From Dehalococcoidia bacterium (GTDB lineage: Bacteria > Chloroflexota > Dehalococcoidia > Lucifugimonadales > GCA-2712585), in NCBI GenBank assembly GCA_963665075.1, contig OY762063.1, positions 630,844 to 694,843 of the forward strand: a stretch of 64,000 nt of DNA, given 5' to 3'. Shown here one piece after another: positions 47,453-57,738 of the stretch. How positions within the stretch are numbered: the first letter of the stretch is position 1; each line of letters opens with the position of its first letter. The translations under genes and the position numbers were made by a program. The notes under the pieces are model-generated. The model did not search any database and was not told the origin of the DNA. It saw only the letters and a program-made list of their open reading frames with translations.

Positions 47453-47989
47453 TCAAGTCCGCGCCGCCCAATCGTCTATGGACGAACCCGTCTGCCGGCA
47501 GGCCCGCAGCACAATCTCAGCCGATGCCCGCGCGTCCTCCGCCGCGTCGTGGTGACGAAAAGTGATGCCCAGGTCGCCCGTTATGAGGGCCAGATTCCAT
47601 CTGTTGCGATACCGTTTTGGCCAGGCCCTGCGGGCTATCATGGAACTATCCAGCCACGTGACGCCAATGGGAACCAGACCGTATTTCCTCGTCGCGCTTT
47701 CGAGGGCCGTTTTGTCGAAATAGGTATGACTGACGACGATTGTGCCCTCCAGCAAATTGCGGAGCCGCCCATGAATCTGCGGCAGCGTCTCGCTGCTGCT
47801 GACGGCCTCCGCGTCGATTCCGTGGAGGTTCACGTGGAAGTCGGCGAAGTCGGTTTCGGGGTTGACCAGGATGGAGTGGGTGCGGGCAATGGCGCCGTCT
47901 TTGACTTCCACGATGCCGATTTGGCAGATGTTGGCGGAGTCGTAGTTGGCGGTTTCGACGTCGATGGCGTTGAAGGTGAGGTTGTTCAT
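47453..47989 (-). CDS. DEDDh 3'-5' exonuclease (DnaQ/epsilon-like), stand-alone
   Basis: Exo[11 protein letters not shown], Exo[13 protein letters not shown], Exo[11 protein letters not shown]. Divergent from cas3 with a ~106-nt spacer. Confidence 0.7.
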
Positions 47990-48095
47990 GGCGCTCCTTT
48001 GGCGCAATAGTAGGGCTGCGGCGCACACTCAACTATGCCGTACAATGGGCGTTGCCCGCAAGTTCCGCCCCGCGTCGGCAGTCAAGGAGACGATT

Positions 48096-49625
48096 ATGGA
48101 TGGAATTGAACAAGCCTGGTACACGCGCCAATTCTGGGCCAAGGCGCAGCCCTACGGACAGTCCGGCCCGGAGCGGATACACCTCCTCGAACACCACCTG
48201 GCCGACGTAGGCGCCTGCTTCGAAGCCCTGCTCAAAATCCCAACCATCCGCCGCCGTCTTGCAGCCGCCGGGGGGTGCGACGACCTGGACGCCGCCACCG
48301 TCGCCCGCCTCTCCCTCCTCGCCGCCTTCCACGACGTCGGCAAAGTCAACGTCGGCTTCCAAACCAAAATCTGGCGCAACGAGGACTTCTCCGGCGGGAG
48401 ACGCAAGCCCGGCCGGGCCGGACACGTTGCCGACATGGTCCCCGTGCTCACAAACAAGGACCAGAAGACGGCAGAATGGTTTTTCGACTCCCTTGGCTGG
48501 TGGCATGAAGCGACCGAATCGTGGGATGACCGTTGCGGCGAGACAGTCTGCGCCCTCTTCGTCGCCTCCCTCTCCCACCACGGACGTCCCCTGCAATTGG
48601 AGTCAACCAGGCAAAGGAATCCAACCATCTGGCAACCCCATTCCTGCCTTCATCCCGAAAATTACGTCAAGCGGCTTGGAAAACTTTCGCGCCAATGGTT
48701 CCCCGCCGCCTTCCACTCCGACGCGCCGCCCCTGCCCTCCAACCCCGCCTTCCAACACGCCTTCCTCGGCCTCTGCAACTGGGCCGACTGGATAGGCTCC
48801 GACGAACGCCGCTTCAGTTTTCTCGACCGGCCCTGTGAAGACTACATCGAGACTGCCCGCAACCGCGCCAGGGAAGCCGTCGCATCCATTGGACTGGACA
48901 TATCTACCCAGAGACGCTCCTTCAACGACATACCGGACTTCGCCGCCCTTTTTGAGATTGAAGGCGCTCCCAACGCCATCCAGAACGCCATCGCCGACAC
49001 CCCCCTGGAGGAACGACTCGTCATCATCGAATCCGAAACCGGCTCCGGCAAGACCGAAGCCGCCCTCTGGCGATTCGCCAAAATGTACCGCGCCGGCATC
49101 GTCGACGGCCTCTACTTCGCCCTACCCACCCGCACCGCCGCCGTCCAGATCCATCGGCGGGTCAAGAATTTCGTCGCCAGACTCCTCCCCCGCCGCACAC
49201 CTTCCACCGTCCTCGCCGTCCCCGGCTACCACCCCAACGCCGACGCCTCCCCCGTCGAAATTCCCCCGTACAACGAAGGCGCCGCCGGCATCGCCCCCGA
49301 AGCCGTGCCCTGGGCTTCCGAGCATCCCAAGCGATACCTCGCCGCCCAAATCGCCGTCGGAACCATCGACCAGGCCCTCATGGGCGCGTTGCAGGTCAAA
49401 AACGCCCACATGCGCGCCGCCTGCCTCACCCGAAACCTCCTCATCGTCGACGAAGTCCACGCCTCCGACACCTACATGAGCGTCGTCCTCGAAGCCCTCC
49501 TCCGCGCGCACCTGAACTCCGGCGGCTACGCCCTCCTCATGTCCGCCACCCTCGGCTCCGCCGCTCAGTTCACCACTACGGGAGGCAACTGTTTGTCTTC
49601 ACGCTCTTCGTATGGAAACTGCTGA
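48096..49625 (+). pseudogene. cas3: cas3 (type I-E style HD nuclease + SF2 helicase), 3'-truncated at ~49565
   Basis: AAGGAGA-ATG. HD motifs LEHHLADV and FHDVGK; helicase motifs ETGSGKTEAAL, LPTRTAA, LIVDEVHASD and MSATLG. The sequence then switches to AT-rich island DNA and stops after 20 unrelated codons. Confidence 0.8.
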
Positions 49626-56229: not shown

Positions 56230-56510
56230 CCGTCGTAGTAACAGTTAACGTAGAGGCCCGATACCGGGGATTTCTCGCGTCGGTGATGCTGGAAATCGCG
56301 CCCGGCGTCTACACCTCTCCACAAATGACCAACGGCATCAGGGAAAGAATCTGGGAAGTCCTATCCGGTTGGCACTACCAACTGGGGCAAGGCGCCATAG
56401 TGATGACGTGGCGGGACCCGGCGGCGGCGGGCCAGAGAATAAGGACCCTCGGAGAAGCTCCAAAAGAAATCGTTGACGCCGACGGCGTCTACCTGGTGAA
56501 ATACAACTAG
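56226..56510 (+). CDS. cas2: Cas2 (type I-E style)
   Basis: 94 aa. MTVVVTVNVEARYRGFLASVMLEIAPGVYTSP resembles E. coli Cas2 ([29 protein letters not shown]). ATGA overlap with cas1. Confidence 0.8.
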   Translation: MTVVVTVNVEARYRGFLASVMLEIAPGVYTSPQMTNGIRERIWEVLSGWHYQLGQGAIVMTWRDPAAAGQRIRTLGEAPKEIVDADGVYLVKYN

Positions 56511-56612
56511 GCAAACTTCGAAAAACCGCCGATAGCGCCTTTCATCCCAAAACAGCAGGCAGAGATACGATGCGATAGCTCAACCCTGACGACAAATACG
56601 AAACTCGTTAGG
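56511..56612 (+). promoter_or_regulatory. Probable CRISPR leader
   Basis: ~100-nt less GC-rich spacer between the cas2 stop and the first repeat. The degenerate repeat lies at the opposite end of the array. Confidence 0.4.
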
Positions 56613-57738
56613 GGTTCCCCCGCACCCGCGGGGATAGACCGGCGTGGCTGGCGAAGCAAAGGCTGGCGAAGTGGGTTCCCCCGCACCCGCGGGGATAGAC
56701 CTCACATCAAGGGGATTAGCCATGCCCAGATCCAGGTTCCCCCGCACCCGCGGGGATAGACCGATATGGCGGGAAGAGCTGGAGGAGATGGGGGTGGTTC
56801 CCCCGCACCCGCGGGGATAGACCCCACCCTTGGCATCTACCGCGTCTGGCCCCAGTGGTTCCCCCGCACCCGCGGGGATAGACCCTTGACCGCCTGGTCA
56901 GTGCCTATGCCGAGGACGGTTCCCCCGCACCCGCGGGGATAGACCGGTATCCTAAAAAGCGACGCCCCGCCCGTCCCCGGTTCCCCCGCACCCGCGGGGA
57001 TAGACCCTTTTTGGAGCGAGGCTGATTTCCTCCGCCCCCGGTTCCCCCGCACCCGCGGGGATAGACCTGTACGGGTCGTTGGGGTCCGCGCCGTTCTCCA
57101 GGTTCCCCCGCACCCGCGGGGATAGACCTCCCTGGTACGAGCCGCCGCCGGAGTTGCCGACGGTTCCCCCGCACCCGCGGGGATAGACCACGCACTGTCC
57201 GGCAACCCGCCGCCGGGCTCGGGGTTCCCCCGCACCCGCGGGGATAGACCGCAGTTCTTACTCCGCCGCCGCCCTGTATGCCTGGTTCCCCCGCACCCGC
57301 GGGGATAGACCGCTTCCTTTTCCCATGATGCTGGCGTACATTGAGGTTCCCCCGCACCCGCGGGGATAGACCTATGATAGCAATATCGGTAATGTTGGTA
57401 AAATTGGTTCCCCCGCACCCGCGGGGATAGACCTGAAGGGGCGAAGAGGATTCGGCATACGACGGCGGTTCCCCCGCACCCGCGGGGATAGACCCACCTT
57501 GAATAGATCGTATGCATCCCCGCTCACGGTTCCCCCGCACCCGCGGGGATAGACCCTATGAATTTGACTACACGATTGCGATGTCGGCGGTTCCCCCGCA
57601 CCCGCGGGGATAGACCGGCGACGGCTCGCCGGTGGAAGGCGATGGCTCGGGTTCCCCCGCACCCGCGGGGATAGACCGTGGAAGGCGTGGACTGAAAGAG
57701 GATTTAGACGGATTCCCCCCCACCCGCAGGCACAAACC
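56613..57738 (+). CRISPR. CRISPR array, type I-E-like repeats: 18 identical + 1 degenerate terminal repeat, 18 spacers
   Basis: 28-nt repeat GGTTCCCCCGCACCCGCGGGGATAGACC at an exact 61-nt period from 56613 to 57650. The last copy at 57711 is degenerate (GATTCCCCCCCACCCGCAGGCACAAACC). Spacers are 33 nt. Confidence 0.95.

Follow-up and report, generated by a model that had tools for sequence, protein, structure and literature searches.

Replacement of the effector block in a Chloroflexota type I-E CRISPR-Cas locus by a putative DNA phosphorothioation operon

Organization of the locus and of its intact counterpart

We describe a type I-E CRISPR-Cas locus found on the chromosome of a member of the Chloroflexota (contig OY762063.1), whose relatives are metagenome-assembled genomes (MAGs) of Dehalococcoidia. 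In this locus the genes of the Cascade effector are replaced by five other genes, which probably form an operon of the DNA phosphorothioate (PT) type. The whole stretch analysed, which we call the window, has 64 kb; it was studied by a listing of its open reading frames (ORFs), by its base composition and by Pfam, NCBIfam and PADLOC scans. The usual arrangement of these loci is a divergent DEDDh exonuclease gene, followed by cas3-cse1-cse2-cas7-cas5-cas6e-cas1-cas2, the leader and the array. Along the window we find the exonuclease (minus strand), a 5' fragment of cas3 (plus), five packed genes (minus), a remnant of cas1e (plus), cas2e, the leader and the array. The elements listed in an initial annotation of this DNA were all found where it had placed them.

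The cas3 fragment (48093–49564, plus strand, with its actual start at about 48093) has 490 of 880 codons. It contains the HD nuclease domain and the first RecA-like lobe, which are detected by Pfam (Cas3_HD and DEAD) and by PADLOC. The NCBIfam model PRK09694 covers it only at model positions 7–482 of 878, and it aligns with residues 9–494 of an orthologue of 895 amino acids (aa). A full-length Cas3, with HD domain, complete SF2 helicase and C-terminal domain, is absent from the window. A protein search gave such a full-length Cas3 of 880 aa (P0121), which is 96% identical to the fragment; DNA identity with the relative that carries it is unbroken up to position 49564 and is then lost. The left junction is thus located between 49564 and 49565. 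Past it the cas3 frame reads 20 foreign codons up to a stop at 49623–49625, as the initial annotation had described.

The insert which follows (49565–55461, minus strand) has 5,897 bp and consists of one five-gene operon plus 66 nucleotides (nt) of upstream sequence. Its GC content is 0.475, against about 0.60 elsewhere, with a sharp step at both ends. The DNA that it displaces began at codon 491 of cas3, ended at codon 50 of cas1 and measured about 6.7 kb. Its limits are 66 nt upstream of the first cassette gene and the native stop codon of the last one: the first three bases of the insert are the stop codon of a DGQHR-domain gene, with length and C-terminus as found in 11 homologues. A 5.9-kb cassette antisense to the cas genes had been described as filling this interval exactly, and this is indeed the case. 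The absence of Cascade ORFs between cas3 and cas1 was also correctly noticed: a tblastn search with Cse1, Cse2, Cas7, Cas5 and Cas6e from a complete related locus (L001) gave no match below E = 0.1 in the whole window, and the interval is occupied by five unrelated genes. A search of the ends of the insert for terminal repeats, direct or inverted, and for target duplications gave only matches at chance level, and family scans detected no integrase or transposase in it. Signatures of mobile elements are absent. We infer that the original event was an illegitimate recombination or a double crossover. Scans for promoters and terminators around both junctions gave nothing above the expectation from shuffled sequences.

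At the other side, homology with cas1 begins abruptly at 55462, directly after an in-frame TAG, in agreement with the previous description; the right junction is therefore between 55461 and 55462. The cas1e remnant (55462–56229, plus strand) contains codons 51 to the end, 255 codons in all, as judged from NCBIfam, PADLOC and orthologue alignments. Its first position corresponds to residue 51 of a 311-aa Cas1 orthologue and to about residue 38–44 of E. coli Cas1. It scores 239 with TIGR03638 (cut-off 215.6), with a match that starts at model position 47 of 269, and residues equivalent to the catalytic Glu, His and Asp are present. The possibility that the cas3 and cas1 ORFs were members of shorter families is not borne out, as alignments with the Cas3 proteins of 880 and 895 aa and with the 311-aa Cas1 show truncation.

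The rest of the locus is complete. The cas2e gene (56226–56510, plus strand) codes for an intact protein of 94 aa (TIGR01873, 104 bits, cut-off 33) and overlaps the cas1 stop through ATGA. The leader (56511–56612, plus strand) lies between cas2 and the first repeat. The array (56613–57738, plus strand) has 18 perfect 28-nt repeats, spacers of 33 nt and one degenerate terminal repeat. The perfect repeat is GGTTCCCCCGCACCCGCGGGGATAGACC; its 18 copies follow each other with a 61-nt period from 56613 to 57677, and the degenerate copy at 57711–57738 has 6 mismatches. Leader and array correspond to the I-E type, with repeats of 28–29 nt and spacers of 32–33 nt. The TIGR01873 match and a repeat scan agree with the coupled cas2 and the intact array that had been reported. 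The complete locus L001 has exactly this repeat, and the window contains no second CRISPR array. We did not find protospacers in IMG/VR for three of the spacers. Directly past the degenerate repeat, at 57907–58131, there are two tRNA genes, one for tRNA-Glu(ctc) (minus strand) and one for tRNA-Gln(ctg) (plus strand).

An intact allele of the same locus is found in contig L035/L041 (ENA ERZ21830300), which is 97–98.5% identical to positions 37861–49564 of the window. Its homology with the window stops exactly at 49564; beyond it come the rest of cas3, cse1, cse2 and cas7. The initial annotation had recommended a comparison with relatives at the syntenic site and had proposed that one defence system replaced another by deletion and insertion; the syntenic allele, intact in cas3 and different from the junction onwards, supports this proposal. 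Both contigs share the flanking genes for an amidohydrolase, an aminotransferase, a Na+/H+ exchanger (100% amino-acid identity) and the exonuclease, with a synonymous divergence (dS) of 0.07–0.15 in the flanks. The replaced and intact alleles are thus polymorphic among close relatives. No stops interrupt the cas3 fragment, and its ratio of non-synonymous to synonymous divergence (dN/dS) against L035 is 0.22. When its amino-acid changes were polarised with 12 outgroups, 9 were derived in the window, 7 in L035 and 5 were ambiguous, with no signal of decay. In L035 the cse1 gene (12753–14376) is split over two frames near 13660, either by an error of the long-read assembly or by a real frameshift; in the latter case the Cascade of this allele would be damaged too.

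A scan of genome collections with the Cas3 fragment gave 32 I-E loci in MAGs of Dehalococcoidia, Chloroflexota and Caldilineaceae. The counterpart of position 55462 lies about 8 kb past the start of cas3 in 29 of them, and cas2 comes next in nearly all. L001, the one relative with a full ORF listing, has a series of Cascade-sized ORFs between cas3 and cas1. None of the 32 loci shares the non-cas flanking genes of the window. Two related genomes (OY759598.1 and OZ242330.1) have two I-E loci each. In L001 there is also a solitary inverted copy of the CRISPR repeat at 12677 (minus strand), just past the stop codon of cas3, with 3 mismatches, all of them at one end.

The exonuclease gene (47453–47989, minus strand) is intact and codes for a DnaQ-like 3'-5' exonuclease of the DEDDh type (Pfam RNase_T 5.6e-14; PADLOC cas-associated DEDDh 7e-20). 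A divergent homologue is found upstream of cas3 in 16 of the 32 related I-E loci and also in L035, with a dN/dS of 0.15 between the latter and the window. It is an accessory gene of this family of I-E loci, and it may be dedicated to the trimming of prespacers in this clade.

A second carrier of the junction

The same junction is found in L033, a 6-kb Logan contig from another sample (SRR23145504), which is about 90% identical to the window and collinear with positions 57006–50952. It spans the array, cas2, the cas1 remnant, the junction, dndA, dndC and the GmrSD gene, and homology with cas1 sets in at the very base where it does in the window. As this assembly is independent, a misassembly on the cas1 side, which the initial annotation had wished to see checked, is excluded.

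Comparison of both carriers by Nei-Gojobori estimates shows that they are quite different. The proportion of synonymous differences (pS) is about 0.32 in the cassette genes, with dN/dS 0.06–0.12. Codons 1–213 of the cas1 remnant have practically the same values (pS 0.31, dN/dS 0.06), and dN/dS is 0.02 in cas2. Since the junction is common to lineages that differ in about 31% of their synonymous sites, the evidence disfavours a recent replacement, which had been one of the two options initially offered to explain the perfect repeats.

The remnant has changed very little at the protein level. By codon position its identity between the two carriers is 94.5, 96.9 and 71.0%; about 12 non-synonymous differences are seen, against roughly 150 expected under neutrality, and the remnant contains neither stops nor frameshifts. 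The 66-nt spacer between dndA and cas1 is only 41% identical in L033 and thus nearly saturated with changes, whereas the next 39 nt, already in the remnant, are 97% identical. The 18 repeats of the window and the 7 of L033 are all the same. The low dN/dS values and the conservation of the remnant next to such a diverged spacer therefore indicate that the cas1 remnant, cas2 and the repeats have been under selection since the event. To judge from these substitution patterns, the adaptation remnant is maintained by purifying selection and does not appear to be decaying.

The distal part of the locus has had a different history. In the last 52 codons of cas1 pS jumps to 0.77, and in cas2 it is 0.54; there is thus a recombination breakpoint near 56060–56100, and the history of cas2, leader and array differs from that of the junction. 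The leader is 74.5% identical to that of L033, with about 30 nt conserved next to the repeats. All six spacers visible in L033 differ from the 18 of the window, and the spacers of both contigs have no match in the window or in any of the retrieved loci. A scan of JGI metagenomes did not find the DNA pattern specific of the junction.

The cassette and other islands in its neighbourhood

The first gene of the operon (54163–55395, minus strand) codes for a cysteine desulfurase of the IscS subfamily (NF010611 IscS, 552; cut-off 548), which would have the role of DndA or SspA. Its score with the DndA model TIGR03235 is 409, below the cut-off of 480, and PADLOC gives both SspA (1e-157) and DndA (5e-156). 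IscS is accepted as a substitute of DndA (PMC10853773), so that by its IscS match the cassette has the desulfurase expected in a Dnd system. The second gene (52970–54166, minus strand) codes for a short DndC-type PP-loop/[4Fe-4S] sulfurtransferase of 384–398 aa, depending on the start chosen. It has 347 bits with TIGR03183 (cut-off 290.4); the match covers model positions 12–348 of 447, so that the last 100 or so are absent. Its SGGKDS and RFGCWTC motifs are present, as expected in DndC, and PADLOC clearly places it with DndC (1e-113) rather than with SspD (7e-9).

The third gene (51165–52973, minus strand) codes for a 602-aa protein with an N-terminal DUF262 domain (GmrS), a putative nucleoside triphosphatase (NTPase) with the DGQQR motif, and a C-terminal DUF1524 domain of the HNH type (GmrD). 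Pfam detects both (GmrSD_N 1.4e-26, GmrSD_C 1.7e-21), while PADLOC gives HEC-06 (3e-75), 'Orf5' (1e-55) and SspE (1e-14). Its best relative of known structure is DndI (9JFL, 596 aa), with E = 1e-7 and both domains aligned. DndI is a DUF262-DUF1524 restriction nuclease which has been shown experimentally to sense PT (PMC11662687). By its likeness to DndI and SspE, the cassette protein is presumed to be the restriction component.

The fourth gene (50855–51184, minus strand) is a small one, with a GIY-YIG nuclease domain (Pfam GIY_YIG_2 2.2e-10, GIY-YIG 4.9e-6) and about 109 aa when read from an internal ATG. The mechanical ORF reaches 51274; homologues of 108–112 aa are found at the same position in L037, L039 and L043. 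The last gene (49565–50842, minus strand) codes for a full-length DGQHR-domain protein of 425 aa, which belongs to the ParB/DndB superfamily (Pfam DndB 1e-25, 91 bits; TIGR03187 71.6, cut-off 58.85). Its AlphaFold2 model has a mean confidence (pLDDT) of 86 and gives no fold match in the PDB better than ParB-N, with E = 0.3. Neither this protein nor the short DndC has a match in a sequence search of the PDB. DndD and DndE are not found: no cassette protein matches them in Pfam, NCBIfam or PADLOC, and the five ORFs leave no room for other coding sequences.

The core of this cassette (DndC-GmrSD-GIY-DGQHR), sometimes accompanied by dndA and sometimes not, is found again in L034/L036–38, L039, L040 and L043, where its chromosomal locations differ. 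As a unit the cassette is present in at least four other Chloroflexota contexts. The cassettes of L034, L036–40 and L043 likewise have no DndD or DndE. In all five relatives measured (L033, L034, L036, L039 and L040) the cassette has a GC content below that of its flanks; low GC is therefore a trait of this cassette family and not a sign of recency. In L043 (4692–16484) the four-gene core, without dndA, lies next to a methyltransferase, a PRTase-CE gene and an ORC/CDC6-like gene. The family of the DGQHR protein has 845 cluster representatives at E ≤ 1e-10; among the 120 matches listed, identity is 60–100% and length 418–434 aa. The distribution of this protein suggests that it could be a modular component of defence systems. 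It was not found in the scan of JGI metagenomes, its family alignment gave no match in IMG/VR, and plasmid and phage collections contain only distant relatives of DndB and of PAPS reductase.

We found no description of this set of genes in the literature. Published surveys of PT systems were anchored on DndD/DndE (PMC10853773) or needed a P-loop ATPase as neighbour (PMC12914056), and they would not have captured this cassette.

Other parts of the window also have features of islands. At 25763–29149 (plus strand), in a stretch of low GC (0.48–0.50), there is a gene for a protein of 1128 aa which PADLOC identifies as TmtA of the Tiamat defence system (E = 4e-191). It lies about 20 kb from the CRISPR locus and looks like another defence gene acquired horizontally. 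At 32922–37617 (minus strand, GC about 0.50) we find three genes, for an N6/N4 DNA methyltransferase (402 aa), a protein of 438 aa with no known function and a HerA/DUF87-like ATPase (724 aa). In L041, 97% identical to the window, synteny ends at 37861 and different genes follow; this island is therefore strain-specific as well. A small segment at 41009–41244 is variable among strains: it is not aligned between two blocks which are 97–98.5% identical to L035.

Interpretation and comparison with known systems

Our overall reading, which we consider likely, is that the effector block of a I-E system was replaced by a PT-type operon, that selection has kept the cas1 remnant, cas2 and the array, and that the cassette is a compact PT restriction-modification system. 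Interference from this locus would be dead, because it has no Cascade and only half of Cas3. The remnant, made up of a Cas1 shortened by about 50 residues at its N-terminus, of Cas2 and of leader and array, would be kept as a module for adaptation and as a template of crRNA; it probably serves a I-E effector encoded elsewhere in the genome. After the event, homologous recombination with a different I-E locus has probably replaced the 3' end of cas1 together with cas2 and the array, which would explain the different spacers. As to the cassette, the desulfurase would supply persulfide sulfur. The short DndC would activate the phosphate of the DNA backbone with ATP and insert sulfur without DndD or DndE, thereby marking self DNA. 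The DndI-like protein would sense PT-marked self DNA through its ParB-type NTPase domain and nick unmarked invader DNA through its HNH domain. The small GIY-YIG nuclease may assist cleavage, and the DGQHR protein might be a DNA-binding NTPase which regulates or targets the system.

The locus might be given other histories. A chimeric assembly, in which a foreign low-GC contig had been joined between two pieces of a CRISPR-Cas locus, would fit the sharp GC steps, the probable MAG origin of the sequence and a cas3-side junction known from one assembly. We consider it hardly credible, as L033, from another sample, shows everything from the array to GmrSD in identical order, and its junction falls on exactly the base seen in the window; furthermore the insert is exactly one complete operon, and the same family of cassettes is chromosomal and of lower GC than its flanks in five related loci. 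It is also improbable, although less so, that the replacement is recent and that cas3, cas1, cas2 and the array are fresh pseudogenes which have not yet decayed. The intact allele of the closest relative (97% identity), the cas3 fragment free of stops with its unskewed changes (9/7/5) and the perfect repeats are what one would expect of such pseudogenes. Against it we have a junction common to a lineage which differs at 31–32% of synonymous sites over both the cassette and the cas1 remnant, and the small number of non-synonymous differences (about 12 instead of about 150) beside 66 nt that have drifted to 41%. A very recent exchange of this tract between L033 and the window is contradicted by their 10% divergence. 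A somewhat stronger alternative, still rather unlikely, is a functionless cas1 remnant with an apparent constraint due to repeated gene conversion by an intact paralogous or allelic I-E cas1. The breakpoint near 56060–56100, beyond which the cas2-array part has a different history, agrees with gene conversion; besides, intact alleles circulate in the same species and relatives can hold two I-E loci. On the other hand, the pS of codons 1–213 of the remnant (0.31) equals that of the cassette (0.32), as predicted by vertical co-descent with the junction, and conservation reaches right up to the junction base.

The nature of the cassette is a separate question. It could be something other than a PT restriction-modification system, for example a type IV enzyme of the GmrSD type with a GIY-YIG partner, placed beside sulfur-transfer genes for RNA, a cofactor or another DNA modification. 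Neither DndD nor DndE, on both of which canonical Dnd systems are held to depend (PMC10853773), is present, and DndC is short at its C-terminus. The residue found at the position of the PT-sensing Tyr of DndI is His, and a homologue of the DGQHR protein also occurs with an HNH_4 gene without DndC. We find this alternative unlikely too, to about the same extent as gene conversion. The order DndC-GmrSD-GIY-DGQHR is kept, with overlapping or nearly abutting ORFs, in at least five independent chromosomal contexts; DndC passes the NCBIfam cut-off and retains its PP-loop and Cys-cluster motifs; DUF262-DUF1524 partners are established in DndI and SspE (PMC11662687). TdpC is reported to synthesise PT alone (PMC12914056), so that DndD and DndE are not universally required; this makes a mechanism free of both proteins plausible.

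Several points weigh against the reading that we prefer, in which a maintained adaptation remnant lies beside a compact PT system. The left junction is visible only in the window's own assembly. The first canonical start of the cas1 remnant is an ATG at 55501, no promoter for it was recognised by the scan around the junction, and the protein has lost about half of its N-terminal beta-domain; its expression and activity are therefore putative. Different spacers can result from array exchange or differential loss, and do not prove acquisition in situ after the event. Furthermore the intact allele is found in the closest relative, with the low flank dS given above, while the other carrier of the junction is far more diverged (dS about 0.4). 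With three contigs compared, the history of the alleles may have involved recombinational transfer between lineages, regain of the intact block by the L035 lineage or a long co-existence. PT synthesis is a predicted function of the cassette. A phmmer alignment of low identity places 'PWHQR' of the window opposite 'PTYQR' of DndI, so that Tyr25 is replaced by His. The DGQHR protein scores only 45 with the DndB equivalog TIGR03233 (cut-off 328) and has about 24% identity with annotated DndB. In L042 (6850–9284) a homologue with 62% identity lies beside an HNH_4 protein, with neither DndC nor GmrSD. The boldest reading combines two linked possibilities. Cas1e without about 50 residues would still work with Cas2, as a satellite adaptation module for a distant Cascade or co-opted otherwise, and would have been kept beside a foreign operon over about 0.4 synonymous substitutions per site. 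In addition, the cassette would be an undescribed PT system independent of DndD/E, widespread in Chloroflexota and missed by surveys that were built around DndD/DndE or around a neighbouring P-loop ATPase. We propose this combination only tentatively, as less likely than not.

The locus provides a natural case, resolved to the base pair, in which one immune system has taken the place of the effector half of another inside a defence locus, with a known 'before' allele and a second, diverged 'after' allele. The event is an instance of the known turnover of defence islands and involves no new principle; what is unexpected is a truncated adaptation module which has not decayed. It indicates that the loss of CRISPR-Cas need not be all-or-nothing, since adaptation genes and array can outlast the effector under selection, and it matters for the reading of orphan arrays and partial cas loci in genome surveys. 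If the cassette makes PT DNA, it would be a further minimal route to backbone modification, and PT immunity would extend to many Chloroflexota from soil and sediment.

Among known systems the cassette is similar to the IscS-DndBCDE-DndI system of Salmonella enterica Cerro 87 (PMC11662687; 9JFL). Both have a desulfurase, DndC, a DGQHR/ParB-superfamily protein and a nuclease of about 600 aa with DUF262 (DGQQR) and DUF1524 (HNH) domains. The cassette differs by the absence of DndE and of DndD, an ABC/SMC-like ATPase, by a DndC shorter by about 100 model positions and by an extra conserved GIY-YIG gene of about 109 aa. Its DGQHR protein is below the DndB threshold, and the relation with DndI is very distant (E = 1e-7), with His for Tyr25. 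With the single-strand PT system SspABCD-SspE it shares an SspA-like desulfurase, a sulfurtransferase of the PAPS-reductase family and the DUF262-DUF1524 architecture of a PT-sensing nickase; the SspE structure 6JIV matches the HNH part of the cassette protein. However, the SspB nickase and the SspC ATPase are absent, and the sulfurtransferase is of the DndC and not of the SspD type. TdpABC, the hypercompact PT system of thermophiles (as summarised in PMC12914056; TdpAB structures 8WFD/8WET), is a precedent for PT with a single modification gene and with neither DndE nor an ATPase of the DndD/SspC type. In this system TdpC is the sole modification enzyme, and restriction depends on the TdpA hexameric translocase and the TdpB nuclease. 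The cassette proteins have no sequence match to the TdpAB chains in the PDB, and the fold matches of the DGQHR model to TdpAB are non-significant (E > 1).

The CRISPR side of the locus resembles the partial or cas-less loci, surveyed in PMC7145637, which cooperate in trans with complete loci of their own subtype. There too an array and some cas genes persist although a local effector is missing, and the repeat is shared with complete loci of the subtype. The locus described here differs from them in three respects: the missing block has been precisely replaced by a defence operon, an intact conspecific allele is available for comparison, and the truncated cas1 itself bears the mark of purifying selection.

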